Notes: generated from the sequence alone by a model not told the origin. DNA of 64,000 nucleotides from Candidatus Bathyarchaeia archaeon (GCA_038882975.1 JAVZNE010000003.1:1-64000); one strand, 5' to 3'; counted from the stretch's first letter, positions 12,520 through 27,036 are shown. Program-made: numbers and translations.

Positions 12520-12604
12520 GCAGGGGTTGCCGAGCCTGGTCAAAGGCGCAGGCTTCAGGAGCCTGTCCCGTAGGGGTTCGTGGGTTCAAATCCCACCCCC
12601 TGCA
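12520..12604 (+). tRNA. tRNA-Leu(CAG), no intron
   Basis: GCAGGGG/CCCCTGC acceptor, anticodon arm CAGGC-TTCAGGA-GCCTG, long variable arm, GTTCAAATC T-loop, A73. Confidence 0.95.
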
Positions 12605-12772
12605 CTTAGTCAGAACCTACGGTTCCGACACCTCCCTAATTGGTTTTGGTTTGTGGTTGCTTAGGAGAAGCTATGGGAAAGCAACTTTTCTGTCGGCAAT
12701 TTTTAGCGGAAACATCATTATTATAAATATAGAAACTTAAATAATGATTTGACGTGGCTGTAGGGTGTCGGT

Positions 12773-13462
12773 ATGAGCGGGGATGTTATTTGTGCTTTAA
12801 GGGAAAGGTTGGTGAATGTTGGCAAGCAACTGTGTAATTGGGGTCTCGTCGTTGGAACTGAGGGAAATATTAGTGCGCGAATTCCTGGAACGGATAAGGT
12901 TTTGATAAAGCCTTCGGGCGTTTCTATGGGTTCTTTGAAGACTGAAGATTTCATTGTTGTCGATTTAGATGGGAATAAGGTTGAGGGTGTGTTGGCGCCT
13001 TCGATAGAGACGCCTTTGCATACGGCGATTTACCGTGTGAGAAGTGATGTTCAAGGGGTTGTTCACACACATGCCCCGTTTGCCACAGCTTTCGGGATAG
13101 CTGGAATTGAGATAATTCCGTTGCAGGTGGAAATGTTTCTGTATATTCCGAACGGTGTTCCAATAGTGCCTTTTGAGTTGCCCGGCTCTAAAGCGCTTGC
13201 TGAGGCTGTTCAAAAGCTGATTAGGGATTTTAACGCTGTTATTTTGGAGAACCATGGCATAATAACTGTTGGCTCGGCAGTTGAGGAGGCATGCCTCTTA
13301 AACAGGATGGTGGAGGAATGCGCTAAAGTTCAGTTTGTCGCCACAATGCTTGCTGGAAAAGATGCTGTAAGCTGGGAAGCTTTAAAGAGAAAGCTTCAGT
13401 CCAAGATTGGAAGCGCGGATTTGGAGGCTCTTAAGAGCAAGTTTAAGGTTTTTAGGATTTAG
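12773..13462 (+). CDS. Class II aldolase/adducin family (FucA/MtnB-like)
   Basis: GTEGNISAR, KPSG, PSIE (catalytic Glu), VVHTH and LENHG metal-binding His triad. Confidence 0.92.
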   Translation: MSGDVICALRERLVNVGKQLCNWGLVVGTEGNISARIPGTDKVLIKPSGVSMGSLKTEDFIVVDLDGNKVEGVLAPSIETPLHTAIYRVRSDVQGVVHTHAPFATAFGIAGIEIIPLQVEMFLYIPNGVPIVPFELPGSKALAEAVQKLIRDFNAVILENHGIITVGSAVEEACLLNRMVEECAKVQFVATMLAGKDAVSWEALKRKLQSKIGSADLEALKSKFKVFRI

Positions 13463-14703
13463 CCCTTGGTTTTCGCTGTTTCCTTAAGCAGTAGGCAAAG
13501 CGCCAAGGCAATTATGTCTAATATGAATATGGATATGACTGAAAGGTAGTAGGGGTTTGACGGGTAGAGGTTTTCTGTGGCGGATTTAATAGCGTCCATG
13601 AAGAAGATGAAGATTACTGAGCCAGCTTGGGAGAATAGCCAAAGAAAGCTTGATGCACTTCCAGCCAAGGCTGAACCGACGATTTCAGCTGACATTTCTA
13701 GGCCTATTGGTAGGGCTGACATGAGGAAGAATCCCAAAATAAAGCCCATCACAGCCAAAATTGGGAAATCGCCGGTTTCAGCAAAAAAGTAAAGCGTGAC
13801 TGCGGCAACCGCTAAATCTATAACTATGAAGGGTTTCCTCCGTGCTGTTTTGTCGGAAATTCCGGGGATGGCCAGAGAACCGAATATTCCTCCAATAATT
13901 ATTATCCCGCCGATTAGCCCGGCGTCTGTGGCACTTAATCCCCGCGTGTTTAAGATTGTTTCCAGCCATGTGAGCAGTGCTGTGAAAAGTCCAACTCCGA
14001 TAAAGAATAGGGCTTCAAGGATTATGAAATCCTTTTTGCCAAAGAACCCCCTAATTTCCTTAAGTGAGATTGATGCCTTAACCTCTTCTGTTGGCGCTTC
14101 ATGATGGGTGAATTTTGGTTTTTCCCTAGCTAGGATGATGAAGAGTGCTGCGCTTATTACGGATATTGCAGCATAAATTACAAGCATATTCGTTAATAAT
14201 GTGATGTCTGGCGTTGGCACAAGAAAAGGTGTGAGCATCATAGCCACTATCATTCCAATGTATTGGCCCATTATGCCGATTCCCGTGGCTAATGCACGTT
14301 CTTCAAAGGGGAACCATAGTGTTACAAGTTTTGATATGGCGTTGAAGACGAATGGCTGACCCAGTGCGGCGAAAGATTGGAAGATGAGAAGTATTGTAAA
14401 GTTTTCTCCGGAAAGGATTCGCAAAACAGCGGAAACAGCCATTATTAGGGCTCCTATTGAAACCCCAAACTTGAAGCCCTTTTTGTCTATGAGTATTCCG
14501 GCTGGAATGGAGACTGGTATGAAGAGCAAAGGCCAAACCATTGATAAGAGTCCAACGTCGGATTCTGCTACTCCGAATATGGACGTCATTATAGGCCTTG
14601 TTATTGGAGCAAAGTTTAGCCAAAGAATTTGGGAAACCACAGCCACAAGCATGTATGTGAACAGGACAACCCAACGGTAAGGGTGAACTTCTGACTTTTC
14701 CAT
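13459..14703 (-). CDS. MFS transporter
   Basis: About 12 hydrophobic segments, motif A GILIDKKG, WFPFEERALATG. Confidence 0.92.
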   Translation of the reverse strand: MEKSEVHPYRWVVLFTYMLVAVVSQILWLNFAPITRPIMTSIFGVAESDVGLLSMVWPLLFIPVSIPAGILIDKKGFKFGVSIGALIMAVSAVLRILSGENFTILLIFQSFAALGQPFVFNAISKLVTLWFPFEERALATGIGIMGQYIGMIVAMMLTPFLVPTPDITLLTNMLVIYAAISVISAALFIILAREKPKFTHHEAPTEEVKASISLKEIRGFFGKKDFIILEALFFIGVGLFTALLTWLETILNTRGLSATDAGLIGGIIIIGGIFGSLAIPGISDKTARRKPFIVIDLAVAAVTLYFFAETGDFPILAVMGFILGFFLMSALPIGLEMSAEIVGSALAGSASSFLWLFSQAGSVIFIFFMDAIKSATENLYPSNPYYLSVISIFILDIIALALCLLLKETAKTKG

Positions 14704-14816
14704 GCTTCTTCTGTTTTCGGTGCTTGCATTGATATGTTTTGCTGTTTATCAAGCTCCATAAATGCTAAATAATCCTTAAAGCTGAAACACTAATCTCTGG
14801 AAGGCTGGTATGCGGC

Positions 14817-16046
14817 TTGAAAGTTACTGTTTTAGGCGGAGCTGGAACCATTGGTAGCATGGCCACTAGAATTCTCGCATCAAGCGGAATGTTTTCAGAA
14901 GTTATCATTGGAGACGTTGCCTTTGAGAGGGCGAAAAAGCTTGCCTCAGAAATAGGCGTTAAAGGAGTTTCAGCGGTAAAAATTGACGTCACAGATTCAG
15001 GTAGGCTTCAGAAGACGATTAAGGGGTCTGATGTAATACTGAGCTGTGTGGGCCCCTTCTACAAGTATGCCCCAATAGTTTTGAAAGCCTCCATTATGGC
15101 GGGAGTAAACCATGTGGACATATGCGATGATGTTGATGCAACCGAGGCCTTGCTGAAAATGGACGCTGAAGCAAAAAAGGCTGGGATTTCAGCGCTTATA
15201 GGCATGGGGAGCTCCCCTGGAGTGGCAAATGTTCTCGTTAAGTTCTGTGCAGACATGCTCTTGGACGAGGTGGAAGCCATAGACATTTACCATGCTCATG
15301 GGGGAGAAGAAACCGAAGGACCAGCGGTTGTAAAGCATAGAATACACTCCATGATAATACCGGTGCCAATGTTTCTTGACGGTGAATTTAAAACCGTTAA
15401 GGTTTTGGAGGAAAGCGGCAAAGCCTTGGAGGAAGACGTTGAGTTTGCAGATGTCGGAACCTATAGGGTTTATGCCTACCCACACCCTGAAACGATAACC
15501 CTTCCAAGGTATATTAAGGGGGTTCGCAGAGTTACAAACCTCGGCTTGGTTTTGCCCCCGTCCTATGCAGAACTCATTAAGGGCATTGTGCGTCTTGGAA
15601 TGACGAGCGAAGAACCCATAGAAGTTAATGGAAAGAGGATTGCACCCATAGACTTTGCAGTGGCTTTTGCACTACATCAAAGACCAAAATTGTTGAAGGA
15701 AGCCGGGATAACAGAGCCTATGGGATGCCTAAAAATAGTTGTTAAGGGCAGGAAGAAGGGACAGCCAAGCACATATGTATTTTCGATGTCTTCAAGGGGC
15801 ATGGGAATGCGGGAAGGAACCGGAGTGCCAGCAGCTTTGGGCACCATGCTTATGGCTATGGGAAAGATAAAGCTGAAGGGTGTTTTCCCACCTGAAGCCG
15901 CCGTAGACCCAATTGAGTTGTTTACGCTTGCCAAGGAGAAGATAAGGATAGGTGGAACTGTAGGCTTACCAATCCGCGTTGAGCACATCGATAAGAATGG
16001 AAAGGTTCACAAGTTAAGTTTGGAGTCGCTGGTTAAAGGGCCTTGA
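14817..16046 (+). CDS. Saccharopine dehydrogenase-like NAD(P)-dependent oxidoreductase
   Basis: VLGGAGTIG Rossmann motif, SCVGPFY, HVDICDD, GMGSSPG, HPETITLP, GVFPPE. Confidence 0.88.
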   Translation: MKVTVLGGAGTIGSMATRILASSGMFSEVIIGDVAFERAKKLASEIGVKGVSAVKIDVTDSGRLQKTIKGSDVILSCVGPFYKYAPIVLKASIMAGVNHVDICDDVDATEALLKMDAEAKKAGISALIGMGSSPGVANVLVKFCADMLLDEVEAIDIYHAHGGEETEGPAVVKHRIHSMIIPVPMFLDGEFKTVKVLEESGKALEEDVEFADVGTYRVYAYPHPETITLPRYIKGVRRVTNLGLVLPPSYAELIKGIVRLGMTSEEPIEVNGKRIAPIDFAVAFALHQRPKLLKEAGITEPMGCLKIVVKGRKKGQPSTYVFSMSSRGMGMREGTGVPAALGTMLMAMGKIKLKGVFPPEAAVDPIELFTLAKEKIRIGGTVGLPIRVEHIDKNGKVHKLSLESLVKGP

Positions 16047-17596
16047 AAGGGAAATACGTACTCGCCCACGACACTGGAACAACAAGCAATAAGGCTGTGC
16101 TGGTGCGCTTAGACGGCGAAATAGTTGGGCATGCTTCCGCAGAATATCCCGTATATTATCCAAAAAGTGGATACGCAGAACAAAAACCATCAGACTGGTG
16201 GAACGCCGTCACAAAAACCACGAGAGACCTTCTTGAAAAGACAAATGTTGAGCCCTCTGACATTGCCGCTGTCACCTTCACAACGCAAATGTCTGGGACA
16301 CTTCCAGTGGACAGCAACGGCGAGCCGCTTATGCCGTGCATGATATGGCTTGACACTAGAGCAAAAGAGCAAGCCGAGAAAATGAGCAAGGGATTGATAA
16401 AAATCGCCGGGTATGGGCTTCTCACCCTTATAAGATTTCTAAGCATAACCGGCGGGATTTACGGGCATGTTGGGAAAGATCCCATATGCAAAATCTTATG
16501 GGTTAAGGAAGAACAGCCAAAAATTTACGCTGAAACCTACAAGTTCCTCGACTGTAAAGACTACCTAGTTTACAAGTGCACTGGAAACTTCGTAATAAGC
16601 CGGGACTACGCCAACATCTGGTGGATGATGGACACAAGAAAGGGAAGATTCAACTGGTCAGAAACAATTCTCAAAAAATACGGGATAGACAGAGCCAAAC
16701 TTCCAGAAATAATGAAGGCAACAGACATCGCTGGCAAACTTACACCAGAGGCGGCAGCAGAAATGGGCTTGATGGAAGGCACACCAGTGGTTGTTGGAGC
16801 TGGCGACGTGGCTTCAGCAGCCGTAGGCTCCGGAGCTGTAAAAGAGGGGAAAATCCACGCCTACATTGGAACAAGCGACTGGCTTGGCTGCCACCTCTCA
16901 GAAAGAAAGAAGGACCTGTTTCATTACATCGGCAGTATCTGCAGTGCAAACCCAGAAATGTACCTTTGCGTAGCCGAACAAGAGACAGCTGGAGCATGCC
17001 TAGACTGGTTAAAAAACACAATGTTCAAGGAAAGTCGAGGAGACATCTATGAACTTTTCAGCGAAATGGCAAAAAAAGTTAACCCAGGCGCAGACGGCTT
17101 AATATTTACGCCCTGGCTTTTCGGCGAAAGAGCCCCACTGGACGACCCGACAGTTAGGGGAGGCTTCCACAACCTAAGCCTCGAACACACGCGGGAGCAC
17201 ATGGTTCGGGCAGTGTTTGAAGGTGTAGCCCTAAACATGAAATGGGCTTTGTTCTACATGGAAAAACTCGCTGGAAAAGCCGAAAGCATAAACATAATAG
17301 GTGGAGGTGCCATATCAAACGTTTGGTGCCAAATATTCGCAGACGCCCTAAACAGAACCATCAAAAGGGTCGCCGAACCAAAGGAAGCCGGTGCAAGAGG
17401 CGCCGCAATAATAGCTATGATAGCATTAGGCCATATCAAGAGCTTCGAAGATGCGGAGAAGCTGGTGAAAATAGATGCAGTTTATGAGCCGAATCCCCAA
17501 AATGTTGCCATTTATGAGAAAGTCTTCAAAGAGTTTAAAACTATTTACAAGAACAATAGGCAAATGTACCGGAGGCTAAACTTGAAATTCGAATAA
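16043..17596 (+). CDS. FGGY-family carbohydrate kinase (xylulokinase-like)
   Basis: HDTGTTSNKA, AEQ..DWW, IWLDTRA, GAGD, PWLFGERAP, RAVFEGVA, IGGGA. Confidence 0.93.
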   Translation: MKGKYVLAHDTGTTSNKAVLVRLDGEIVGHASAEYPVYYPKSGYAEQKPSDWWNAVTKTTRDLLEKTNVEPSDIAAVTFTTQMSGTLPVDSNGEPLMPCMIWLDTRAKEQAEKMSKGLIKIAGYGLLTLIRFLSITGGIYGHVGKDPICKILWVKEEQPKIYAETYKFLDCKDYLVYKCTGNFVISRDYANIWWMMDTRKGRFNWSETILKKYGIDRAKLPEIMKATDIAGKLTPEAAAEMGLMEGTPVVVGAGDVASAAVGSGAVKEGKIHAYIGTSDWLGCHLSERKKDLFHYIGSICSANPEMYLCVAEQETAGACLDWLKNTMFKESRGDIYELFSEMAKKVNPGADGLIFTPWLFGERAPLDDPTVRGGFHNLSLEHTREHMVRAVFEGVALNMKWALFYMEKLAGKAESINIIGGGAISNVWCQIFADALNRTIKRVAEPKEAGARGAAIIAMIALGHIKSFEDAEKLVKIDAVYEPNPQNVAIYEKVFKEFKTIYKNNRQMYRRLNLKFE

Positions 17597-17659
17597 AGCA
17601 TACATATACATATTTATTACCGCAACAATTCATCTATCAGTTGGCTGATTTGGTGAAGT

Positions 17660-18973
17660 TTGATGTCGGAAGAAATTGAAGCCCTTCCATTAGCCTTGCC
17701 AGAAGGAATAGACCCGGAAAAATATGTGATAGCCACCTATTATATGGCTGTTCCAAGAGACTGGCCTGTGGACAAGATTGCCATGGCCGTGGCTGTTGAA
17801 CAAAGCACTGGGACGTGGATTCGTGTTCCAGGCGAAACTATTGAGCTGCGGAAAAGGCACATAGCCAAAGTAATTGCCATAAACGAGGTTCCAGATTTTG
17901 AGTATGAGGTTCCAGCTGATGTAAAGTTGAGGCGGTATATTGTTCAGATAGCCTATCCCTACGAGAATTTCATGAATGAAATTTCCATGCTTTTGACAAC
18001 AGTTATTGGCAACATTTCTATGGCTGGAAGGCTGAAGCTTGTTGATTTAACCTTTCCAAAAAGCTACCTTGAAATGTTCAAAGGCCCAAAATTCGGCGTT
18101 CAAGGATTAAGGGAATACTTGAAAATTGAGAAGAGACCTTTACTAAACAACATGATTAAGCCATGTACTGGTTATCCACCGGAAGTTGGCGCAAAACTTG
18201 CTTACGAGGCTTTGGTGGGTGGAGCAGACTTTGTTAAGGACGATGAACTTTTGGCCAATGCACCCTTCAACACCGTGGAAGACAGAATTGTAAAGTACAT
18301 GGAGGTTGTTGACAAGGCTGCCCAAGAAACTGGAGAAAAGAAAATGTATACGATAAATGTGACGGCGGACGCACCGAAAATCTTCGAGTTTGCAGAGAAA
18401 GTTATAGAGCTCGGAGCCAACGCAATAATGGTTAACCACCTAGTGGCAGGCATAGGTGTTTTAAAGGCTTTAGCTGAAGACCCAAGCATAAAGGTTCCAA
18501 TTTTAGGTCACATGGACTTCGCCGGAGCTATCTACGAGGACCCAGAGTCAGGTATGTCATCCCACTTAACCCTGGCGAAGCTTCCGAGACTTGCGGGTGC
18601 AGACATACTTGTTTATCCGGCGCCTTATGGGAAACAACCCTTCTTCTTAAAAGAGAAGTACTTGAAAACTGGCAGAACCATGCTATTCCCGATGCATAAC
18701 ATCAAGCCAATGTTGCCCATGCCATCAGGCGGAATAACGCAGCTCCATGTTCCACAGCTTATAAGCGATTTAGGCACAGACATAGCCATCGGAGCCGGCG
18801 GGGCTATTCACGCCCACCCAATGGGTCCAAAAGCTGGTGCAAAAGCCTTTAGGCAAGCCATAGAAGCCACAATGAACAGGATTCCACTGGAACAGTATGC
18901 CGAACAACATCCAGAACTGAAAGCCGCCATAGAAGCCTGGAAAGCCGGACCAGTCTCGCTACTTCTCGAATAG
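17660..18973 (+). CDS. rlp: RuBisCO-like protein (form IV)
   Basis: AVEQSTGTW, IGN, MIKPCTG, GADFVKDDE, GHMD, YGK, PSGG, GGAIHAHP. Positions equivalent to K177 and R295 are substituted, so this is not a form I-III carboxylase. Confidence 0.95.
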   Translation: MMSEEIEALPLALPEGIDPEKYVIATYYMAVPRDWPVDKIAMAVAVEQSTGTWIRVPGETIELRKRHIAKVIAINEVPDFEYEVPADVKLRRYIVQIAYPYENFMNEISMLLTTVIGNISMAGRLKLVDLTFPKSYLEMFKGPKFGVQGLREYLKIEKRPLLNNMIKPCTGYPPEVGAKLAYEALVGGADFVKDDELLANAPFNTVEDRIVKYMEVVDKAAQETGEKKMYTINVTADAPKIFEFAEKVIELGANAIMVNHLVAGIGVLKALAEDPSIKVPILGHMDFAGAIYEDPESGMSSHLTLAKLPRLAGADILVYPAPYGKQPFFLKEKYLKTGRTMLFPMHNIKPMLPMPSGGITQLHVPQLISDLGTDIAIGAGGAIHAHPMGPKAGAKAFRQAIEATMNRIPLEQYAEQHPELKAAIEAWKAGPVSLLLE

Positions 18974-18983
18974 AATAGCGTCT

Positions 18984-20276
18984 TCAAATGTTACACTGTG
19001 CCAAATTAACGCTGTATAGGCATTCGTTGCATGTTGGCGCATTCGCATAGCAGTCAACATCGTTAGTTCTAGTGTAGAAGCATCCTAAAGCCGAGTATGA
19101 GCAGTCTCCACACCAAGGCACGTTTTTAGCCATGTCCCGTCTAACCTCTCTGAAATTGATGTAAGCCTCTCGACGCCAAATTTCTTCAATGCTCTCCTTT
19201 GTTATGTCGCCAAAGATTACCTCACCCACATCCTTTTTGTGAGCGTTGACGTAAACCGGATGGGTGTACATGAATTCTTGACATGGAGAGACTGCTCCAT
19301 CACTTCTTATAACTAAAGTCTCCTTCTCCACATAGGGACACTTTCTTTCCTTGGCATCTGGGTACAAGTTTGGCAGCCTCAAATCAATATGGTATTCATG
19401 TGCAATTTTCTCGCTTTCATTGAAAACCCCTCCTAAACGGGTTGACGCCTCAAGCTTTTCCGCGGAGCTTAAGAGCAGAGGCAGATTAATCCAATACCCC
19501 TTCTTTTCGGCTTCAGTCCAAAAGCTTCTGATAAGCTCTGTGGAGGCTGTCTCCATTTTCACGCCGTAGGCTTTGCCGAAAAGCTCCAAGGTGGATTCGC
19601 GGACAAGGCGCCATCCATATTTTAACGAGGGCTTCAATATTTCAATGGCTGGCTTGCTCAAAGTTAGGTACATGGTTTTGGCAAAAATCTCTCTTGTGTA
19701 TGGCATAACATGGGACACTATTACATAATCAACTCCTTTCTCAGCCGCAAACTTGGTGAGTTCTGGAATTTCTGAAAAGTTATCTTCCATAACAACGGTT
19801 TCCAAACCTAACCTAAAATCTCTTTTAGCTCCATCCTTGCCTTTGGCAAGTCTTTCGATGTTGCTGGCTATTAATTTGAAGTCGGAGCCCCCTCTTAAAA
19901 GGCTTAGCCTGGTTTGGCTGACGGCATCTACAGAGAAGGATATGGAGTCTACGCCTATTTCCTTTACAATTTTGCTGGCGATTTCTGGACCTATCTGCGA
20001 GCCGTTTGTGCTTACTATAATTTCTCCATCGTCTGAAAGGCTCTTTCTGGCTATTCGGAGCATCTCAAGAATTTGCGGGTGGATGAAGGGCTCACCAAAG
20101 CCGTAAAGCACAAGCCTCTTCAAAGATGGGAAACACGATTTTGCAATTTTCCTGTATAGGGATAGGTCCATGTCTAATGGTTTCGCGTTCCAAACATGCC
20201 TAATGCACATTTGACATTTAAAATTGCACCTATTTGTAACTTCTATCTGCATTGCTACTGGGAACTCATCACTCAT
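18984..20276 (-). CDS. Radical SAM/SPASM protein, putative tungsten oxidoreductase maturase
   Basis: CNFKCQMC, YGFGEP, C-terminal Cys cluster (CPY...PC...PWCGDC...C...DC...CNEC...C); co-oriented with moaD and aor. Confidence 0.85.
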   Translation of the reverse strand: MSDEFPVAMQIEVTNRCNFKCQMCIRHVWNAKPLDMDLSLYRKIAKSCFPSLKRLVLYGFGEPFIHPQILEMLRIARKSLSDDGEIIVSTNGSQIGPEIASKIVKEIGVDSISFSVDAVSQTRLSLLRGGSDFKLIASNIERLAKGKDGAKRDFRLGLETVVMEDNFSEIPELTKFAAEKGVDYVIVSHVMPYTREIFAKTMYLTLSKPAIEILKPSLKYGWRLVRESTLELFGKAYGVKMETASTELIRSFWTEAEKKGYWINLPLLLSSAEKLEASTRLGGVFNESEKIAHEYHIDLRLPNLYPDAKERKCPYVEKETLVIRSDGAVSPCQEFMYTHPVYVNAHKKDVGEVIFGDITKESIEEIWRREAYINFREVRRDMAKNVPWCGDCSYSALGCFYTRTNDVDCYANAPTCNECLYSVNLAQCNI

Positions 20277-20296
20277 GAGGATGCTTTCCTTGCAAT

Positions 20297-20584
20297 TTAG
20301 CCCCCAGCTAAGGGTGGAAATATGGCTATTACATCATTGTCTTTTAGGGTTATCTCTCCTTCCAGGTCTTTGATGTTTCTCCCATTAACCATAATAATCA
20401 TGTCGTCTCTAACTTTTCCTCGCTTTCTGTCGTAAACATCGTCGACAAATTCTGGTCCTAGAATTTTAGATGCGTTTTCAATCATGTTTGGAAGGGTTCC
20501 ATCACAAGCGACGGTGAGCTCTCTAATTTTGTATTTGCTGCGCAACGTTGCGAAAAGAACTATTTTTACGGATGCCAAAGCCAA
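20297..20584 (-). CDS. moaD: MoaD/ThiS-family ubiquitin-like sulfur carrier
   Basis: FATLR, VNGRNI, C-terminal FPPLAGG. Confidence 0.9.
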   Translation of the reverse strand: MALASVKIVLFATLRSKYKIRELTVACDGTLPNMIENASKILGPEFVDDVYDRKRGKVRDDMIIMVNGRNIKDLEGEITLKDNDVIAIFPPLAGG

Positions 20585-20632
20585 GCGCTTCCAACAAAAT
20601 AAAGGGGAGAGTAAAGGGGAATTTCTGCTTTT

Positions 20633-22480
20633 CTAAAGTTCTATTTCAAGTTCAGCCAGCTTCTCTTTGGTTGGGACGCCGTTAACCCAGCCGCGGAGCT
20701 TGTAATACTCTTCCTTCATTTTTTCAAGTTCTGTTATTTGGCCTTTTGCTGGTCCTTCTGGCATGGGCTCTTCTAACAGGCGTCTTGGCAGTGTGTCGTC
20801 TTTCCCGTCGAATCCAAACTTGTTGATTATGACTCTTTCCAGGTTGTAGATGCGCTCTCCAATTTTTAGGATTTCGTCCTCTGTTAAGTCCCAACCAGTA
20901 ACCGCCGATAGAAGCTCTGCATAATCCTTTGTTCCCAAAGCGAAAGTTGTGAATAGGCAGTTTACAGTTGAGTTAACCACACATGTGAAGTCTTGGAATA
21001 TTTTAACCCACTTCGCTTTTCCCTCAACCTTCAATGGGTCAATTTTCTCCGGAATTCCCAAAACTTCGGGTGAAACGGTGTATCCTGTTACGTGGCAGCC
21101 CCCTCTGTTGGCCGTTGCATAGTTCAGCCCTATTCCCTTAATGGCTCTTGAGTCGTAGGCTGGCATTTCAAGGCCTTTAACGCTCATGGAAAGCTCTGGA
21201 TGCCCATAAATCTCGCAGAGCTTCTTCGACCCTAAAGCCAAATATTTTCCGAATCCGGCTTTGTAGGCTGTCCGCCAAACCGCCTCCACAAGGGCTGCAG
21301 CGTTACCAAAACGCAAGTCTAAGCCCTGCAAATCTTCTTGGGGAATATAGCCCTTCTCATTTAGTTCCATGGCGGCAGCTATCGTGGAGCCCATGCTTAT
21401 TGGGTCCAACCCAAACTCATCGCAGTAGTGGTTAGCTTTAACAACTGCATCTAAGTCTTTGACTGCTGTGCTGCTTCCCAAAGCCCAAACAGACTCATAC
21501 TCGGGGCCTTCTGAAGCTAAAACTTGGAAGGGCCCAGACTTGACGCTTGTTACTCTTCCACATCCAATCGGGCAGCCCCAACATGACCTTCGACTAGTCA
21601 AATACTTTTCTGCGAGGGTTTCTCCACTTATTTTCTCCGCGTCTGGGTTCACACCCGTCTGCCAATTCTTGTAGGGCAATCCGCCGGCAGTATTAATTAT
21701 GTTTATGAGGATGGCTGTGCCATATGTCGGCAGTCCAACACCCGTAACAGCGTTATTTTTCATGGCATCCAAACATCTTCTTGAAACTTCGGCGAATTTT
21801 TTAGGTTCGGCAACTGGAACACTTTCTTCTCCAGAAACAACGATAGCCTTCAGCTTCTTAGACCCCATAACTGCTCCTACGCCTGTTCTTCCAGCAGCCC
21901 TATGCTCGTCATTAACTATGCAAGCCATGTACGCCAAATTTTCGCCAGCAGGCCCGATGCAAGCAACACTTGTGTTTTTGCCGCCAACCTTATCCTTCAA
22001 TATTCTGCAAGTGTCAAAAACATTTTTGCCCCATAGACTACTTGCATCCCTTAATTCCGCCTCTCCATTCACAACAGCCAAATACACCGGAGTTTCCGAT
22101 GCTCCCTCAACTACAACTGCGTCAAACCCGGAAAACTTAAGGAAGGGCCCGAACTCCCCACCTGAATTTGCACTCCCAACAGAACCAGTTAATGGCGATT
22201 TCAGCGCCATCACGTGGTATCTGCCAGAAGACGGAAAGCCCGGAACACCGGTTCCTGGGCCCGTTGCAAATATTAAGACGTTTTCCGGGCCTAATGCGTC
22301 AATGTCTTTTGGCGAAATTCCAGCCTTCTCATATTCCTTCAAATATTTGTAGAGGAGGTATACAGCGTAGCCTTTGCCGCCAAGATATTTCCTTGCAACC
22401 TCTTCAGAAGTTGGCTCAACCTTTAAACTTCTAGTGGTCAAGTTTACTCTTAGAATCCTCCCCATATAACCCCTTGGCAT
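20633..22480 (-). CDS. aor: Tungsten-dependent aldehyde:ferredoxin oxidoreductase
   Basis: GRILRVNLT, KSPLTG, CIGPAGE, RAAGRTGVGAVMGSKKLKA, CWGCPIGC, EGPEYE, NRGGCH. Confidence 0.95.
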   Translation of the reverse strand: MPRGYMGRILRVNLTTRSLKVEPTSEEVARKYLGGKGYAVYLLYKYLKEYEKAGISPKDIDALGPENVLIFATGPGTGVPGFPSSGRYHVMALKSPLTGSVGSANSGGEFGPFLKFSGFDAVVVEGASETPVYLAVVNGEAELRDASSLWGKNVFDTCRILKDKVGGKNTSVACIGPAGENLAYMACIVNDEHRAAGRTGVGAVMGSKKLKAIVVSGEESVPVAEPKKFAEVSRRCLDAMKNNAVTGVGLPTYGTAILINIINTAGGLPYKNWQTGVNPDAEKISGETLAEKYLTSRRSCWGCPIGCGRVTSVKSGPFQVLASEGPEYESVWALGSSTAVKDLDAVVKANHYCDEFGLDPISMGSTIAAAMELNEKGYIPQEDLQGLDLRFGNAAALVEAVWRTAYKAGFGKYLALGSKKLCEIYGHPELSMSVKGLEMPAYDSRAIKGIGLNYATANRGGCHVTGYTVSPEVLGIPEKIDPLKVEGKAKWVKIFQDFTCVVNSTVNCLFTTFALGTKDYAELLSAVTGWDLTEDEILKIGERIYNLERVIINKFGFDGKDDTLPRRLLEEPMPEGPAKGQITELEKMKEEYYKLRGWVNGVPTKEKLAELEIEL

Positions 22481-22619
22481 GGGACCACCAGCAGTAAATT
22501 TTCTGCGGCAAAGAGGATTTAATACTTGCCCTCTTCATGGTTTTTCAATGTTTTAGAAAATCTTAATAGCAAAATCAACAAGACCTAAAGAACACTGTAT
22601 TTTGTTATGGAGGGTTTAT

Positions 22620-24386
22620 ATGGCTCGTATAACTGGCGGCGAAGTTTTGAAACGCTGCCTAGTTCAAGAAGGCGTCCGATACGTTTTCGGCGTTCCCGGA
22701 GACCAGCTGTGCCCATTGTTGGACGCCATTTACAAAGACAAGCACATAGAATTCATAACAATGCGCCACGAGGCTGCAGCGGCCCACGCGGCTGATGCTT
22801 GGACGCGGGCGACTGGACAGCCAGGAGTATGTATAGGAACCGTCGGCCCCGGAGCTGCAAACCTTATCGGTGGAGTTTATCCGGCCTTTGCAGATAGCAT
22901 ACCAATAATCGTAATTACTGCTCAAAACCAGTCTTGGCGTTCATATCCAGACCAAGGTTCCCAGCAAGCCCTCGACCAATTAACACTCTTTAAGGCTGTT
23001 ACAAAATGGAACGCCGTGGTATCCCATTGGAAACGCATCCCAGAACTCACCCATTGGGCCTTTAGGATGGCAATGTCTGGAAAGCCCGGCCCCGTGCACC
23101 TCGACTTCCCTTCAGATGTTCTCTTCCAAACGGGAGAGGAAGCGGACCTGGAAATTTTGCCTCCAAATAGTTATAGAGCCATGGAAAAGCCTGTTGGAAA
23201 TTCAGCTCTCATAGATCAAGCTGCAAAAATGCTTGCAGAGGCAAAAACGCCACTAATCCACGCGGGCGGTGGTGTTCTAAGGTCCGGGGCCTCAAAGGAG
23301 CTTATAGAACTGGCTGAATACCTACAAGCCCCGGTTACCACGTCAATGAGCGGAAGAGGCGCTATACCTGAAGACCATCCCCTATGCCTTATCCCAGCAG
23401 CACCGGGCAACGGAGCCATCGTGGCTCAGGCTGAAGCTGACGTTGTTCTCGTTGTCGGCTGCAGGCTTGGCGCCTTAGACATGTGGGGGAAACCGCCAGC
23501 ATGGGGAGAATCACCCAAACAGAAAATCATCCAGATAGACATTTCAGGCGACATGATTGGCTTAAACAGGCCGGTTGATCTTGGGATTGTAGGCGATGCA
23601 AAATCAACCCTTAAGGCTTTATTTGAAGCTGTTAAAAGACACATACCTCCAAGGAAGGAGAATCCCTTCCTTCAGGATTATAAGCGATTAGAAAGGATGT
23701 GGCTTGAAAATTTTGAGGAGATGTCACGTTTGGACACCGTGCCAATCCATCCTCTGCGCGTGGTAAGGGAGGTTAGGGAATTCTTTCCAAGAGATGCCAT
23801 AACTGTTGTTGACGGGGGAAACACGGCTGTTTGGTGCTTCTACCTAAACAGGGTTTACGAACCAAACACGTATATCAGTTGTGTTAGTGGCGATTCTGGA
23901 CATTTAGGCGCCGGCATTCCATACGCCATTGCGGCGAAACTTGTCCATCCAGACAGGCAGGTTTACTGCATAACTGGTGATGGAGCCTTTGGCTTGAACA
24001 TTCAAGAGCTTGAAACTGCAAGCCGCCTCCAACTGCTCATAGTGTTTGTGGTTTTAAATGATTGTGCATGGGGAATGATAAGGGCTGGACAAACATTGTT
24101 CTATTCTGGGAGGCATATTGGAGTTGACTTTTCAGACATAAGGTATGACGAGATTGCAAGGGGCATGAACTGCTACGGCGAAAGGGTTGTGGAGCCAACC
24201 CAGATAAGACCAGCCTTACAGAGAGCTGTGGATTCTGGAAAAACAGCAGTCTTAGACGTCAAAATCGACAGGGAGGTTATACCTCCAGACTTCGCTGTTT
24301 TGGCTTCCATATGGCTTGAAGGATGCGAACTTCCAGAAGAGGAAAAGGAAACGGTGAAAGAAGTAACGGAAATTGTGCAACGCTAA
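22620..24386 (+). CDS. ThDP-dependent enzyme (acetolactate synthase/2-hydroxyacyl-CoA lyase/benzaldehyde lyase superfamily)
   Basis: RHE catalytic Glu, GPGAAN, PGPVHLD, GDGAFG...LND ThDP motif; ATG 22620 follows GGAGG. Confidence 0.9.
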   Translation: MARITGGEVLKRCLVQEGVRYVFGVPGDQLCPLLDAIYKDKHIEFITMRHEAAAAHAADAWTRATGQPGVCIGTVGPGAANLIGGVYPAFADSIPIIVITAQNQSWRSYPDQGSQQALDQLTLFKAVTKWNAVVSHWKRIPELTHWAFRMAMSGKPGPVHLDFPSDVLFQTGEEADLEILPPNSYRAMEKPVGNSALIDQAAKMLAEAKTPLIHAGGGVLRSGASKELIELAEYLQAPVTTSMSGRGAIPEDHPLCLIPAAPGNGAIVAQAEADVVLVVGCRLGALDMWGKPPAWGESPKQKIIQIDISGDMIGLNRPVDLGIVGDAKSTLKALFEAVKRHIPPRKENPFLQDYKRLERMWLENFEEMSRLDTVPIHPLRVVREVREFFPRDAITVVDGGNTAVWCFYLNRVYEPNTYISCVSGDSGHLGAGIPYAIAAKLVHPDRQVYCITGDGAFGLNIQELETASRLQLLIVFVVLNDCAWGMIRAGQTLFYSGRHIGVDFSDIRYDEIARGMNCYGERVVEPTQIRPALQRAVDSGKTAVLDVKIDREVIPPDFAVLASIWLEGCELPEEEKETVKEVTEIVQR

Positions 24387-24451
24387 GCCTCACTAAACTT
24401 TCCCATTTTTCCTAATGTGCCATGGTAAAGAAGGGGGAAAGTGAGGTCTAT

Positions 24452-25618
24452 CTAGAAGTCTACTGTTTTCCCTTCAAACGCGTAGACAAACAGTTTTCTG
24501 TAGTCTTCTGCTGTTGGAACCCTCGGGCTTGCTATTGTGCCAGTAGACCCCATGGCTCTTTCCACAAGATTGTCAAGCTCGCTTTCGAAATCGCTCCGGC
24601 TGATTCCCAACTCCCTTATTGAAGTGGGCTCATCAACATCCTTCAAAAGCCTTTTTAATGCTTGTACAAACTTTTCAAAGGCTTCCTTGTCCGTTTCTGC
24701 TTTGATTCCAAAAGCGTCGGCAAGGGCGCCAAACCTTTCCATCGCTTCCTTCGCCATATACTCAACTGCAAATGTTAAAACAGCCGCCACACTCCTGCCG
24801 TGGGGAATCTTGAATAGGGCACCCAAAGCATGGCCCATAGCGTGGGCAACACATATCTGGGAGTTACTGAAGGCAAGTCCCGCCATGGTGGCCGCGTAGT
24901 GCATTTTCTCCTTTGCCTCCTTGTCTTGGCTGTTGCTGTAAGACCTTGGGAGATGCTCAAAAATCACTTTTATGGCGTTTATGGCTAAAACGTCTGAAAA
25001 ATAGTTTCGCCACTGTGAGACGTAGGCTTCCAACGCGTTTACAAGCGCATCAACACCTGTGTCAGCCACAAGCCTCTTCGGCATAGTGAGGGGGAGTTGG
25101 GGGTCAAGGATCACTATGTCGGCAACCATTTCTTTAGAGGCAAGCTCCATTTTCCTCTTCTCCTTAGCATCAGTGATTACTATTGCCCATGTAGCCTCAG
25201 AGCCTGTTCCACTTGTGGTTGGAATCGCCATAAACCTCGCCTTTTTCCTTAAGCCAAGCTTTAGCAACGGGCTTATCTCGTCAATTTGAATGTCCGGCCT
25301 CTCGTATAATGCCCATGAAGCCTTAGCCGCATCAATGCAGCTTCCACCACCCAACCCAACAATCCAGTCAGGTTCAAAAAGTCCGGCATGCCCCGCACAT
25401 TTGGTTACGGTTTCCCTAGAGGGTTCAGGCTCCACTTCATCGAAGATTTCTACCCTTAATCCTGCCTCTCTAAGGTAGCTTGCAACTTTTTCGACAAAGC
25501 CTAAATCGCGGATAACCTTATCTGTGACTATTAAGGCCTTTTTTCCTTCAATTTCCCTCAAATATTCTAGTGCGCCCTCACCGAAAACTATGGATTTTGG
25601 GGATGTAAACTCCCACAT
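24452..25618 (-). CDS. Iron-containing alcohol dehydrogenase
   Basis: GLGGGSCIDAAK, IPTTSGTGSE, AHAMGH, IPHG. Confidence 0.93.
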   Translation of the reverse strand: MWEFTSPKSIVFGEGALEYLREIEGKKALIVTDKVIRDLGFVEKVASYLREAGLRVEIFDEVEPEPSRETVTKCAGHAGLFEPDWIVGLGGGSCIDAAKASWALYERPDIQIDEISPLLKLGLRKKARFMAIPTTSGTGSEATWAIVITDAKEKRKMELASKEMVADIVILDPQLPLTMPKRLVADTGVDALVNALEAYVSQWRNYFSDVLAINAIKVIFEHLPRSYSNSQDKEAKEKMHYAATMAGLAFSNSQICVAHAMGHALGALFKIPHGRSVAAVLTFAVEYMAKEAMERFGALADAFGIKAETDKEAFEKFVQALKRLLKDVDEPTSIRELGISRSDFESELDNLVERAMGSTGTIASPRVPTAEDYRKLFVYAFEGKTVDF

Positions 25619-25632
25619 GAGAGCTGGAACCT

Positions 25633-26043
25633 CTAAATAAACTCTGTTGGGACCCTGCTCGCGGTTTTCACAAGCTCCGAGGCTGCCTTAGTATACCGCA
25701 TAATCTTAGCCATATTCCCCTTCAACTTGAACTTCCGCATAAGCAAACTCTGAATGGGGTCTAACTGCCCCATTATCAGCTTCTTCCAATTTGAATATGG
25801 CCCTTCATAGATAAACTCAGCAGTTTTGGCTTCTCTGCTGGGCACCATGTAGGCGTCGCGGCACTTGCCATGCCAAAGATCCACATAAAAAACCATCTCC
25901 TTGTCTAAGCCCTCGTCTGGGGCTACTACGAAGAGGAAGTCGCCCTCCCAGTCCTTAGCAGCTTCGGCATAAGCCTCATTTTTGTTAAGCTCCTCCTTGT
26001 AGGCTTTAATCCACTCTTCACCTGGAAACTTAAACTTCTTCAT
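25633..26043 (-). CDS. SCP2 sterol/lipid-binding domain protein
   Basis: FPGEEW...W.GD...GPYSNWKK..GQLDPIQSLL..KFKLKGNM; ATG 26043 preferred. Confidence 0.85.
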   Translation of the reverse strand: MKKFKFPGEEWIKAYKEELNKNEAYAEAAKDWEGDFLFVVAPDEGLDKEMVFYVDLWHGKCRDAYMVPSREAKTAEFIYEGPYSNWKKLIMGQLDPIQSLLMRKFKLKGNMAKIMRYTKAASELVKTASRVPTEFI

Positions 26044-26348
26044 ACGAACCACGAAATATTTGTAGAGAAACATTGAAAAAATTTGTGTTTGCTGGCTTCA
26101 ATAACGTTTCTGTTTATCCCGAGGTTGACTGCGGAAGTGCAACGAAGATACTCTTTACAAAATAGTAGCAAAATTAGGAGAATCTCAAGGCAATCGCCTT
26201 AACATTTTCACTAGCACTTATGGAGGCGATGCCTCCTACGCAGCTTGCATCGTGCACATAGGCCTTAGAAGCCCCATCTTTGGTGGAAGTTGAAGTTTCG
26301 CGGGGGATGTAGCAAAGTTTTTATTTAATGTGATGGTCAGCTTAAATT

Positions 26349-26552
26349 ATGCCAATAATTCATGTATACGTGTGGAGGGGTTTTTCGAACGAGGCTAAGA
26401 AAAGGGTTATAGAGGGTGTAACCAAGATCTTCGCCGAGTTAGGTATACCGTCGGAAGCTGTTGAAGTTGTGATACATGAGGACCCGATGGAAAATTGGGG
26501 AGTAGCCGGACAGCAAGCCAGCGAGAAATTCAAACACGTAAAGATACCTTGA
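26349..26552 (+). CDS. 4-oxalocrotonate tautomerase family protein
   Basis: Pro-1 after Met (MPIIHV), 67 aa, EVVIHE..ENWGVAG. Confidence 0.9.
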   Translation: MPIIHVYVWRGFSNEAKKRVIEGVTKIFAELGIPSEAVEVVIHEDPMENWGVAGQQASEKFKHVKIP

Positions 26553-26839
26553 AAAATAATACATAACAATGCCGCCTCGCAAGCTCTTCAGGCACGTAGG
26601 AAAGCATGGACTGCTGTCGATGACCCCCCAAACAACTATCAGTTCATTATTTTAATCCTCTGAGAAAAAGGTAACTTCAAAAACCCAAAAACCCAAATAC
26701 CTCACAAACTTTTGCATTATTTTGCCCCCCGCATCTTAACGAGGGATTCCAAAAATCCAGCGTAAACCGAACTAAACATAAAATCTGTTTTCATAAGTTG
26801 TGGTCGGGCGGGCAGGATTTGAACCTGCGACACTCCGGT

Positions 26840-26916
26840 TTCTGCACCCTGCACGTGTACGCTTGGTAGGCTGGGTGACGCCCACCAGAACGGCAAACGC
26901 CGCCTATGGTAGGCGT
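26840..26916 (-). other. tRNA-Tyr intron 2 (canonical position 37/38)
   Basis: Central helix CTGT/GCAG, bulges AG^A and AA^A. The flanking exon helix TCCGG/CCGGA forms only after intron 1 is removed. Confidence 0.85.
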
Positions 26917-26923
26917 CTACAGC

Positions 26924-26958: not shown

Positions 26959-27036
26959 CGGAAGCTCTACCAAGCTGAGCTACCGCCCGCCCAGCTAAAT
27001 TCTAGTGGAATAAAACTGATTTATATGTTTCGTGGT

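Follow-up and report, generated by a model that had tools for sequence, protein, structure and literature searches.

Several described systems resemble parts of the locus analysed here. The enolase MtnW/YkrW of Bacillus and Geobacillus (PDB 2oek, 2zvi) acts on 2,3-diketo-5-methylthiopentyl-1-phosphate in methionine salvage. D-apiose is reportedly catabolised via the kinase OiaK and the RuBisCO-like protein (RLP) decarboxylase OiaX, as Carter and colleagues are said to have described in 2018; the kinase of the apiose routes is of the four-carbon acid-sugar kinase type. L-fucose, L-rhamnose and 5-deoxyribose are disposed of by an FGGY/MtnK-type kinase together with FucA, RhaD or DrdA. Further relatives are archaeal form III RuBisCO (PDB 1geh) and the three-gene neighbourhood of TIGR04317 type, formed by an aldehyde:ferredoxin oxidoreductase (AOR), a MoaD-like protein and a radical SAM maturase.

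We analysed a DNA stretch of 64,000 nucleotides (the window) from a hot-spring Bathyarchaeia MAG of approximately 1.4 Mb. ORF calls combined with Pfam and NCBIfam searches recovered all 12 genes, with their domains, that a first-pass annotation had placed between a tRNA-Leu and a tRNA-Tyr gene. The left border, tRNA-Leu(CAG) (12520..12605, + strand), was confirmed by ARAGORN and Rfam (RF00005, 53.8 bits). At the right border (26801..26989, - strand), default ARAGORN and Rfam made no tRNA-Tyr call and the intron mode of ARAGORN returned a dubious tRNA-Arg; once two introns of 35 and 77 nt were spliced out in silico according to a hand parse, ARAGORN called tRNA-Tyr(GTA). A tRNA-Tyr gene with two introns is thus plausible at this border, dependent on the hand parse. 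The 12 genes are split between the two strands and form at least seven transcription units. The interval very probably consists of two independent gene blocks juxtaposed between the two tRNA genes: a left block (12773-18973) comprising a class II aldolase, an MFS transporter, a saccharopine-dehydrogenase-like (SDH-like) enzyme, an FGGY kinase and an RLP, of which the last three constitute the conserved core, and a right block (18984-26073) comprising radical SAM, MoaD and AOR genes, a ThDP enzyme, an SCP2-fold protein and an iron-type alcohol dehydrogenase (Fe-ADH). An independent DNA contig from a hot-spring run (covering 18416-20348) spans the junction between the RLP and radical SAM genes, which rules out misassembly of this MAG as the source of their adjacency.

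The core genes are the only ones in the interval that are both co-directional and tightly spaced, with a 4-nt overlap followed by a 63-nt gap. The first (14817..16046, + strand; PF03435 and PF16653, Sacchrp_dh_NADP and Sacchrp_dh_C) encodes the SDH-like NAD(P) C-N oxidoreductase, with 4ina, 4rl6 and 8deb (carboxyspermidine dehydrogenase) as best PDB matches (E-18 to E-21). Its stop is overlapped by the start of the FGGY-family sugar kinase gene (16043..17596, + strand; PF00370 and PF02782, FGGY_N and FGGY_C), the product of which scored 363.1 against the XylB model TIGR01312 (cut-off 380.25). The third gene (17660..18973, + strand; PF00016 and PF02788, RuBisCO_large and RuBisCO_large_N), likely starting with the ATG at 17663, encodes an RLP of an uncharacterised clade. 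Orthologues of the trio (identity of at least 87% for the SDH-like enzyme, at least 78% for the kinase and at least 91% for a full-length RLP) were found in the same seven of 41 related genomes (G000, G003, G005, G010, G011, G013, G037) and in none of the others.

RLP relatives were confirmed at least 530 times in genome contigs. Partner genes were counted in 79 fetched loci whose RLP is nearly full-length; together with the window these gave 80 rows of an RLP tree. An FGGY gene lay within 3.5 kb of the RLP gene in 66 of the 79 loci, and the pair recurred across Chloroflexota, Bacillota, Actinomycetota, Caldisericota and several archaeal phyla; 13 loci had no FGGY gene nearby, and Theionarchaea loci L034 and L049 carried a PfkB kinase instead. 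Within the same distance, the partner was an SDH-like enzyme in 35 of the 80 rows (in other phyla, homologues with 49-70% identity adjoin the RLP) and in 26 its place was taken by a class III aminotransferase; eight rows had neither despite a flank of at least 3.5 kb, and in 11 the flank was too short. The tree requires at least five switches between the two amine enzymes, and the aminotransferases were of differing subtypes (HemL-like in L033, GABA-AT-like in L028). Both enzymes were present in L086 by crude ORF calling, though not by the criteria used for the tree rows. These neighbourhoods support a predicted functional tie of the RLP to the FGGY kinase and a C-N enzyme. In other phyla, the flanks of the module carry regulators of TetR and ArsR/FilR1 type together with MFS, Dpp/Opp-type ABC and DUF401 transporters, the pattern expected of inducible catabolism.

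The RLP itself scored below the cut-offs of both curated MtnW models (351 versus 409 for NF007095, 300 versus 513.6 for the other), of the form III model TIGR03326 (293.5 versus 497.45) and of the OiaX model (199 versus 700). Given the two MtnW scores and an Asn (IGNIS) in place of the catalytic Lys of MtnW (FGKLS), we rejected the RLP as an MtnW enolase; MtnK was not found either, and the earlier view that this is not standard methionine salvage was borne out. Aligned to the form III RuBisCO of genome G025, and in what we take to be standard RuBisCO numbering, the RLP retains E60, T65, W66, N123, K175, the KDDE motif (K201, D203, E204), H294, K334, SGG (S379-G381) and GG (G403-G404), all invariant among 12 clade members of 57-80% identity, and carries C, M, A and V in place of K177, R295, H298 and H327, respectively. 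By this alignment the RLP has kept the metal, enolisation and first-phosphate residues of RuBisCO and has lost its second-phosphate ligands.

The class II (metal-dependent) aldolase (12773..13462, + strand; PF00596, Aldolase_II, E 2e-51) is FucA/DrdA-like but remained under every NCBIfam cut-off (best NF005123, 171 versus 251). Its best PDB matches were 6btd/6btg from Bacillus thuringiensis (105 bits), which we take to be the 5-deoxyribulose-1-phosphate aldolase DrdA, followed by FucA entries; the HTH...H metal-ligand pattern, at what are presumably the ligand positions of 6btd, is retained in the alignment. Orthologues occupy the same position in L013-15, L017-19 and L021-22. An aldolase accompanies the core only in Bathyarchaeia relatives and, with 41% identity, in two Actinomycetota loci (L059, L066), a limited pairing which indicates that the cleavage step is not general; the aldolase is an accessory that this lineage has added to the left block. 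The MFS transporter (13459..14703, - strand; PF07690, MFS_1, E 1.6e-36), probably an importer, is encoded divergently from the SDH-like enzyme across a 113-bp spacer and adjoins the aldolase in the loci L013-15, L017-19 and L021-22 (76-92% identity). Two deletions within the genus removed the left block. In G002:C103, aldolase residues 9-125 are fused to RLP residues 328-437, and G012:C34 retains Fe-ADH, ThDP, AOR, MoaD and radical SAM genes plus a 27-residue RLP remnant; orthologues of the aldolase, the SDH-like enzyme and the kinase were not found in G012 (91% complete). Genome G009 (62% complete) has an aldolase orthologue (83%) and no RLP that we could find. The first-pass association of aldolase and transporter with the core agrees with their travelling together within Bathyarchaeia and their joint loss. 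We regard the left block as probably a dispensable, horizontally mobile catabolic unit.

Most likely, the left block serves the catabolism, by a hitherto undescribed route, of a sugar-like compound that bears an amine. A compound of this kind with a non-polar end would be imported, and its amino group converted to a carbonyl by the SDH-like enzyme here and by the class III aminotransferase in other phyla. The FGGY kinase would then phosphorylate the keto-sugar beside the carbonyl, as do fuculokinase and rhamnulokinase. The RLP would bind the monophosphate through its retained Mg2+/carbamate and first-phosphate sites, form an enediolate and reprotonate it to an isomer or epimer. The class II aldolase found in this genus would split that product into dihydroxyacetone phosphate (DHAP) and a small aldehyde; the right block may take up that aldehyde opportunistically. 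The proposed succession of NAD-dependent C-N oxidation, phosphorylation and RLP chemistry, already put forward in the first-pass annotation, fits the conserved ties among the three core genes. We hold the explanation as a whole, two blocks and the working of the left one, to be reasonably probable; a catabolic direction with an amine as substrate is about an even call, and the specific order of steps and types of reaction are tentative and rather doubtful.

Another explanation would have the left block salvage by-products of S-adenosylmethionine (SAM), namely 5'-methylthioadenosine or 5'-deoxyadenosine, with the RLP, in the manner of its Rhodospirillum rubrum counterpart, using the 5-methylthio- or 5-deoxy-ribulose-1-phosphate made by MtnA, and the aldolase, of DHAP-shunt/DrdA type, releasing DHAP and (methylthio)acetaldehyde. 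The genome does encode MtnA (401 bits, cut-off 279) and methylthioadenosine phosphorylase (296 bits, cut-off 275) elsewhere, the aldolase of the window has no second match in the genome at E <=1e-20 and has the presumed DrdA as best solved relative, and the replacement of the second-phosphate ligands by M, A and V would suit the requirements of a methyl or methylthio tail. However, of the 15 relatives searched, 14 gave an MtnA score above the cut-off, among them G001, G004, G006, G007, G008 and G009, in which no RLP was found, so that MtnA does not track the block; the most constant partners of the RLP, the FGGY kinase and the amine enzyme, would have no role; and the failure to find MtnK, the sub-cut-off MtnW scores with Asn for the catalytic Lys, and an MFS importer pointing to an external substrate all argue in the same direction. 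We consider this salvage function unlikely.

The amine could also be the product rather than the substrate, as it is in the reaction that completes methionine salvage. The core module would then be biosynthetic, kinase and RLP yielding a phosphorylated keto compound that the SDH-like enzyme or aminotransferase would aminate to an amino-polyol or amino-acid-like product. In known families both amine enzymes are reversible, carboxyspermidine dehydrogenase being reductive, and in three Bacillota loci (L032, L068, L083) a HAD phosphatase follows the aminotransferase, echoing the enolase and subsequent phosphatase of methionine salvage. The patchy distribution within one genus with clean deletions, and the adjacent importers and TetR/ArsR-type regulators, better fit an accessory catabolic trait and make a biosynthetic role improbable.

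The right block begins with a radical SAM/SPASM protein of the AOR-linked maturase type (18984..20276, - strand; Radical_SAM and SPASM), which scored 287.9 against TIGR04311 (cut-off 400) and 274.1 against TIGR04317 (cut-off 380). It is followed by a MoaD/ThiS-fold small protein (20297..20584, - strand; PF02597; 45.8 against TIGR01687, cut-off 49.5) and an AOR family enzyme (20633..22480, - strand; PF01314, E 3.4e-153, and PF02730; AFOR_N and AFOR_C). The radical SAM gene adjoins MoaD and AOR every time (G006, G008, G012, G013, G017, G037). The acetolactate-synthase-like ThDP enzyme (22602..24386, + strand; three ThDP domains) is under all cut-offs (TIGR00118, 399 versus 538) and has close orthologues only in Bathyarchaeia-type MAGs, the next relatives showing at most 39% identity. 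The Fe-ADH gene (24452..25618, - strand; PF00465 and PF25137) comes after the ThDP gene in 10 of the 12 loci L109-L120, down to 75% identity; the SCP2-fold protein (25633..26073, - strand; PF02036, E 5.6e-12), encoded 14 nt upstream of Fe-ADH on the same strand, accompanies it in nine of the 12. Beyond the block lies a 67-residue protein of the 4-oxalocrotonate tautomerase family (26349..26552, + strand; PF01361, E 2e-13) with Pro after Met; tblastn gave no homologue at E <=0.01 in any fetched locus, and it is not a conserved neighbour.

The first-pass annotation had joined all 12 genes into one pathway, in which the RLP route would lead to aldol/ThDP C-C cleavage and then to oxidation by a tungsten AOR, yielding reduced ferredoxin, or reduction by Fe-ADH, SCP2 serving as the carrier of a lipophilic substrate. 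In its favour, the blocks abut in the window and seven close loci (L013, L014, L015, L017, L018, L026, L111), with the independent contig bridging the junction. Aldolase paralogues (42-47%) directly adjoin AOR paralogues (38-44%) in G038:C71, G035:C226 and G028:C1; an aldolase-to-AOR hand-over is therefore used elsewhere in this order and may operate here too. An RNA-library run with short contigs on the SDH-like, RLP, AOR and Fe-ADH genes adds weak support, since such libraries can contain DNA. Against it, the blocks are unlinked in G013, where the right block is entire on contig C1 and the left lies at the end of C4 and the start of C3, and in a MAG in which the ThDP/Fe-ADH locus (L116) and the RLP locus (L021) are on different scaffolds. 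Four loci (L016, L019, L021, L022) with RLPs 91-95% identical have different genes downstream, and G012 lost the left block and kept the right. AOR orthologues (at least 82% identity) occur in 13 of 41 genomes, six of which have no detected RLP orthologue; in these six the AOR-MoaD-radical SAM orthologues are 82-96% identical. The triad stands alone in G006, G008, G017 and G037 and is partial in G028 and G033. ThDP enzyme, Fe-ADH and SCP2 remain linked at identities as low as 75% where no RLP accompanies them. Right-block genes were not seen near any of the 69 distant loci, except for a 33% Fe-ADH match approximately 9 kb away (L059, L066) and a 31% SCP2 match (L092). Co-occurrence in other genomes, which the first-pass annotation had itself made decisive, fails for seven of the 12 genes: its RLP/kinase/C-N core stands, and the proposed link to tungsten-dependent oxidation of aldehydes, like the inclusion of ThDP enzyme, Fe-ADH, SCP2 and tautomerase, is not supported. 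A single pathway is thus very unlikely and, as far as gene distribution can tell, largely refuted; the right block is very probably a separate aldehyde-metabolism unit.

Compared with the described systems, the right block has the same three-gene order as the TIGR04317 neighbourhood type, also seen in eight fetched loci of other genomes, but its radical SAM protein is below the family cut-off (274 versus 380); the metal of its AOR would be W or Mo. The left block shares an FGGY kinase and a FucA/DrdA-like metal aldolase with L-fucose, L-rhamnose and 5-deoxyribose disposal; those routes include neither RLP nor amine enzyme, and the aldolase of the window is lineage-specific and under the curated cut-offs. 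With the D-apiose routes it shares the succession of dehydrogenase, kinase and RLP on a phosphorylated keto compound, but their kinase is not of the FGGY family, they lack an amine-handling partner, and the RLP is far under the OiaX cut-off. Form III RuBisCO (the G025 homologue, in L010) has the catalytic residues in common with the RLP, in which R295, H298, H327 and K177 are replaced, and neither AMP phosphorylase nor R15P isomerase appeared in the context of the RLP locus. MtnW/YkrW is the top-scoring curated family (NF007095), and its structures rank with the best PDB matches of the RLP (E 7e-74). Whereas the RLP of the window is accompanied by an FGGY kinase and an amine enzyme instead of mtnK, mtnB, mtnX and mtnD, the two have in common the fold, the KDDE carbamate/metal motif and, as predicted here, a monophosphate substrate with a non-polar tail.

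The twelve protein-coding genes that the first-pass annotation had read as one pathway, built on a RuBisCO-like protein (RLP) and tungsten-dependent aldehyde oxidation, were all recovered by ORF calling and by Pfam and NCBIfam profiles, with the positions and domains it had assigned. They are spread over both strands and comprise a left block (12773-18973: class II aldolase, MFS transporter, saccharopine-dehydrogenase-like (SDH-like) protein, FGGY kinase and RLP), a right block (18984-26073: radical-SAM protein (rSAM), MoaD, AOR, ThDP enzyme, Fe-ADH and SCP2 protein) and a tautomerase gene (26349-26552). The SDH-like, FGGY and RLP genes, hereafter the core, look like the sole operon-like set: the first two overlap by 4 nt, and 63 nt separate them from the RLP gene; a 113-bp AT-rich spacer lies between the divergent MFS and SDH-like genes. 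The left-hand tRNA-Leu(CAG) at 12520-12605 was called by both ARAGORN and Rfam. The tRNA-Tyr placed at the right border was called by neither default ARAGORN nor Rfam, but ARAGORN did call tRNA-Tyr(GTA) after the removal of two hand-parsed introns of 35 nt (26958-26924) and 77 nt (26915-26839), so that a probable tRNA-Tyr(GTA) lies at 26801-26989 on the minus strand. Intron-allowing ARAGORN gives a tRNA-Arg at this position and strand, which we judged to be a mis-call, and the overlapping 115-aa 'ORF' (26800-27147) is probably not a gene. The flanks at 9002-12233 and 27371-31112 are unrelated to the RLP finding; they encode an ELP3-like radical-SAM/GNAT protein, an Amidohydro_3 protein, a phosphoglucomutase/phosphomannomutase and a 593-aa surface protein that is membrane-anchored and has an InlB B-repeat-like domain.

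The window belongs to contig C3 of a 1.42 Mb MAG of 94.7% completeness. The same stretch is present in hot-spring metagenomes of several studies, and the junction between the two blocks is spanned by one metagenomic DNA contig. One RNA-library run yielded short contigs over the SDH-like, RLP, AOR and Fe-ADH genes, a weak sign of transcription; the aldolase and MFS genes were uncovered in this run, which is no sign of silence. In runs marked 'RNA? (probably DNA)', contig depth was higher over FGGY-RLP than over aldolase/MFS, a measure that cannot rank genes and that comes from libraries that may be DNA.

Comparison with 41 related genomes separated the two blocks. Full-length RLP orthologues (at least 91%) and orthologues of the SDH-like protein (at least 87%) and the FGGY kinase (at least 78%) occur in exactly the same seven genomes (G000, G003, G005, G010, G011, G013 and G037). 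AOR orthologues (at least 82%) occur in 13, six of which have no RLP orthologue (G006, G008, G012, G017, G028 and G033). In genome G013, contig C1 carries the entire right block (rSAM-MoaD-AOR-ThDP-FeADH-SCP2); the aldolase gene sits at the C4 end and SDH-FGGY-RLP at the C3 start. Two further genomes retain only traces of the left block: at locus L096 (G012:C34) the order is FeADH-ThDP-AOR-MoaD-rSAM and then 27 residues left over from the RLP C-terminus (6633-6713), and at L097 (G002:C103, 2418-3099) aldolase residues 9-125 are joined straight to RLP residues 328-437, with loss of the MFS, SDH-like and FGGY genes. Within the same genus, the left block has thus decayed in two ways independently of each other. 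The genome distribution, the split in G013 and the deletions in G012 and G002 thus indicate that the left block is a unit whose gain, movement and loss were independent of the right block, and the proposed tie of the core to AOR and tungsten aldehyde oxidation is not borne out. In G011, two near-identical copies (94-97%) of SDH-FGGY-RLP-AOR pieces were seen (C24 and C45/C47); the contamination of this MAG is 5%, and the doubled pieces are probably a strain mixture rather than a duplication.

Consistent boundaries emerged from the neighbourhoods of RLP relatives. We fetched 80 loci, the best 80 of at least 530, and searched them with all 13 window proteins. In this set the rSAM, MoaD, AOR, ThDP, Fe-ADH and SCP2 genes adjoin only RLPs that are at least 94% identical to that of the window (L013-L015, L017, L018 and L026). 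Four loci with RLPs of 91-95% identity and enough downstream sequence (L016, L019, L021 and L022) carry other genes there, e.g. an ArsR-type regulator or a NosD-like protein. The aldolase and MFS transporter reach further, to L021 and L022 at 73-77% identity; L020 and L023 lack both upstream of their SDH-like gene, and two Actinomycetota loci (L059 and L066) have an aldolase of 41% identity at 4.5 kb upstream. Across 69 distant loci among the best 80 of at least 530, the RLP is constantly accompanied only by an FGGY kinase together with an SDH-like protein or a class III aminotransferase. An FGGY gene lies within 3.5 kb of the RLP in 66 of 79 loci, again from the best 80 of at least 530. When the amine partner was counted within the same distance over the 80 rows of the RLP tree (79 loci and the window), 35 had the SDH-like protein, 26 an aminotransferase and eight neither despite enough flank, and in 11 the flank was too short. 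On this tree (quick IQ-TREE) the two partner types swap at least five times. The aminotransferases are not one orthologous group (HemL-like in L033, which comes from a MAG assigned to Tepidanaerobacter acetatoxydans, and GABA-AT-like in L028), and a class I/II aminotransferase is added in Baldrarchaeota and one Desulfurococcales locus. A lead towards taurine:2-oxoglutarate aminotransferase, given by a gene of L071 that matched 6jix (E 9e-119), was rejected because this gene is on the opposite strand, 6.7 kb away from the RLP; those aminotransferases that do adjoin RLPs are of other subtypes.

Other neighbours vary. A nitroreductase-family flavoprotein lies between FGGY and RLP in the Bathyarchaeia relatives L019 (7209-7745) and L023 (9667-9900), and in Bacillota loci (L032 and L041; L041:12870-13820) the gene after the aminotransferase encodes a ferredoxin-nitroreductase fusion; this family is a recurrent, optional fourth partner, which the window lacks. 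Occasional partners are a HAD phosphatase in Bacillota loci, regulators of the TetR or ArsR/FilR1 type, and MFS, Dpp/Opp-type ABC or DUF401 transporters. A Hodarchaeota MAG (L024) carries two divergent FGGY-RLP pairs on one contig, one of them accompanied by an SDH-like gene, and after these come Dpp/Opp-type ABC permease genes; the 80% identity of its RLP to the Bathyarchaeia RLP suggests cross-phylum transfer. In two Theionarchaea MAGs (L034 and L049) the RLP has neither FGGY nor amine enzyme nearby, and a PfkB-family kinase is encoded about 3 kb upstream. Just downstream of the RLP, these two loci, as well as L030, L048, L054 and L082, encode a small protein that matches the N-terminal domain of HMG-CoA reductase.

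The right block was examined in the same manner. The AOR-MoaD-rSAM triad is intact in the fetched regions of G006, G008, G012, G013, G017 and G037, and partial in those of G028 and G033. Its AOR/MoaD/rSAM-SPASM order is the conserved one of the tungsten-cofactor oxidoreductase with rSAM maturase (TIGR04317), for which the rSAM protein scores 274.1 against a cut-off of 380. The ThDP enzyme is acetolactate-synthase-like and scores under all NCBIfam cut-offs. In 12 loci fetched after a homologue search based on it, with identity down to 75%, ThDP and Fe-ADH occur together in ten and SCP2 in nine, the AOR orthologue is adjacent in six and an AOR paralogue (46-47%) in two, while the RLP is adjacent in only three (L109, L111 and L114). 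Loci L116 and L021 come from the same MAG, where the RLP is on another scaffold than the ThDP gene. The AOR-MoaD-rSAM triad recurs as a stand-alone set; joined by the ThDP enzyme and the SCP2-Fe-ADH pair, it resembles a general unit by which aldehydes are both made and disposed of. A second SDH-like paralogue, 30-40% identical to that of the window, lies in or beside the right block at L109:5258-6094, L112:191-1027, L116:11988-12623 and L117:10548-11696, a hint that the right block may also handle amine-derived aldehydes. Class II aldolase paralogues are encoded directly beside AOR paralogues in L100 (G038:C71), L101 (G035:C226) and L102 (G028:C1), with an FGGY kinase paralogue near by in G035 and G033 (G033:C11:11097-17536). 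These loci look like a cluster of deoxy-sugar-type kinase, aldolase and AOR distinct from that of the window, and the pairs in G038, G035 and G028 show that class II aldolase and AOR are coupled elsewhere in this order.

As for the twelve-gene pathway, the three-gene core held up, and the aldolase and transporter did so in part; tungsten aldehyde oxidation, the ThDP enzyme, Fe-ADH and SCP2 fell away. So did the tautomerase, which we dropped as a partner since no homologue was present in any fetched locus. A metabolic hand-over from the left to the right block in the window is possible; nothing that we found supports it. Together, these data indicate that the 'pathway' is a local juxtaposition and that the core is a variant, so far uncharacterised, of sugar-phosphate metabolism based on an RLP.

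The first-pass annotation had further held that this is not a standard methionine-salvage locus, and our results agree. The RLP scores below the cut-offs of both MtnW/YkrW models (NF007095, 351.2 bits against 409; TIGR03332, 300.1 against 513.6), and in the whole-genome profile search it again stayed under the MtnW cut-off (TIGR03332), at 300 bits. In the HMMER alignment, its 'VIGNIS' stands opposite 'TFGKLS' of 2oek, so that Asn occupies the position of the MtnW catalytic Lys, which we take to be Lys98 of the G. kaustophilus enolase, as is the case in RuBisCO. This Asn (N118) is invariant across 12 clade members (alignment A1). Pfam and NCBIfam profiles detected no mtnK, mtnA, mtnB, mtnX or mtnD in the locus, and a search of the whole genome, 94.7% complete, did not find MtnK; MtnA and MTA phosphorylase are encoded on other contigs, and MtnA also occurs in relatives where the RLP was not found. 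The RLP likewise falls below the models for form III RuBisCO (TIGR03326, 293.5 bits against 497.45) and for OiaX, the 3-oxo-isoapionate-4-phosphate decarboxylase (NF042437, 199.1 against 700). Its clade has at least 530 confirmed relatives in one genome collection, conservation is strong, with 57-65% identity between archaea and bacteria, and the source names of these relatives routinely carry the wrong label of methionine-salvage enolase. Other RLP-like genes, 40-42% identical to that of the window, were seen in L008 (G034:C8) and L009 (G026:C9); their active-site motifs differ ('LKPPTG' with 'AHLNFGG', and 'LKPKTG' with 'AHPTMARA'), indicating several RLP clades in Bathyarchaeia besides true form III RuBisCO (L010).

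We then aligned the RLP to a bona fide form III RuBisCO from the related genome G025, using what we take to be spinach numbering. The RLP keeps E60, T65, W66, N123, K175, K201-D203-E204, H294, K334, S379-G381 and G403-G404, all invariant in 12 clade members from at least six phyla (alignment A1), and has C in place of K177, M of R295, A of H298 and V of H327. Given this pattern of kept and changed residues, the RLP should bind metal via a carbamylated Lys, hold one phosphate beside the reacting carbonyl and form an enediolate, and its substrate would carry no charge at the far end. Because the residues for enolisation and CO2 addition (E60, N123, K175, K201, H294 and K334) are kept and the distal phosphate site alone is lost, one may also imagine a true carboxylase, or another enzyme that makes or breaks C-C bonds, acting on a ketose monophosphate derived from an aminated sugar via its own FGGY kinase. 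We consider this very improbable; if true, RuBisCO-type CO2 fixation or C-C cleavage would extend beyond ribulose bisphosphate and would have spread by gene transfer in anaerobes of more than 10 phyla.

The other left-block enzymes, too, score below the cut-offs of named families. The FGGY kinase has both FGGY Pfam domains and scores 363.1 bits against the XylB cut-off of 380.25 (TIGR01312). The SDH-like protein has the fold-level domains PF03435 and PF16653, scores 48.1 bits against a cut-off of 800 for carboxy(nor)spermidine dehydrogenase (NF043000), finds its best PDB matches at only E-18 to E-21 and retrieves only generic 'saccharopine dehydrogenase family' names from the ESM Atlas. The aldolase is under the cut-offs of all 33 listed models (best 171 against 251). 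Its 'HTH' and later 'NHG', presumably metal-binding, align with the same residues of 6btd, its best solved relative ahead of FucA entries, so that fold and metal site agree with the class II aldolase superfamily, to which L-fuculose-1-phosphate aldolase, L-ribulose-5-phosphate 4-epimerase and MtnB belong.

That two unrelated types of amine-carbonyl enzyme substitute for each other beside the same kinase and RLP points to an amine-bearing substrate or product. L-lysine 6-dehydrogenase and L-lysine 6-aminotransferase are a precedent for such replacement. FGGY kinases acting on 6-deoxy-ketoses, such as fuculokinase and rhamnulokinase, phosphorylate C1, beside the carbonyl. In the scheme that we favour, phosphorylation at C1 by the FGGY kinase would give a monophosphate of the kind that the RLP pocket suggests; the RLP would enolise and reprotonate it to an isomer or epimer, and in this genus the product would be cleaved to DHAP and an aldehyde by the class II aldolase of FucA/DrdA-like type. 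Candidate substrates are amino-deoxy sugars, Amadori-type 1-amino-1-deoxy-ketoses and amino-polyols. An accessory catabolic trait would agree with the importers and regulators, with the patchy occurrence and with the clean deletions.

RLPs are non-carboxylating relatives of RuBisCO and are thought to be the source from which its chemistry diversified; to our knowledge, few RLP reactions have been established. For this clade, with its clear three-enzyme context, knowledge of the substrate would extend the RuBisCO superfamily by a new reaction, put many annotations right and show which amine-bearing carbon source or damaged metabolite is used by anaerobes in hot springs and sediments. We found no published description of an FGGY-RLP-amine-enzyme module in the literature, supplements aside, and passages of one preprint (bioRxiv 10.1101/2025.11.05.686826) do not treat RLP function. 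The window is, moreover, a caution that a long run of plausible enzymes need not be one pathway. Compared with the DK-MTP-1-P enolase MtnW/YkrW, the window RLP differs in model scores, in having Asn in place of the catalytic Lys and in lacking mtn genes in its locus. With form III RuBisCO it has in common the carbamylated Lys and metal ligands (K201, D203 and E204) and the enolisation residues (K175, H294, K334, N123 and E60), whereas the second-phosphate site (R295, H298 and H327) and K177 are absent from it.
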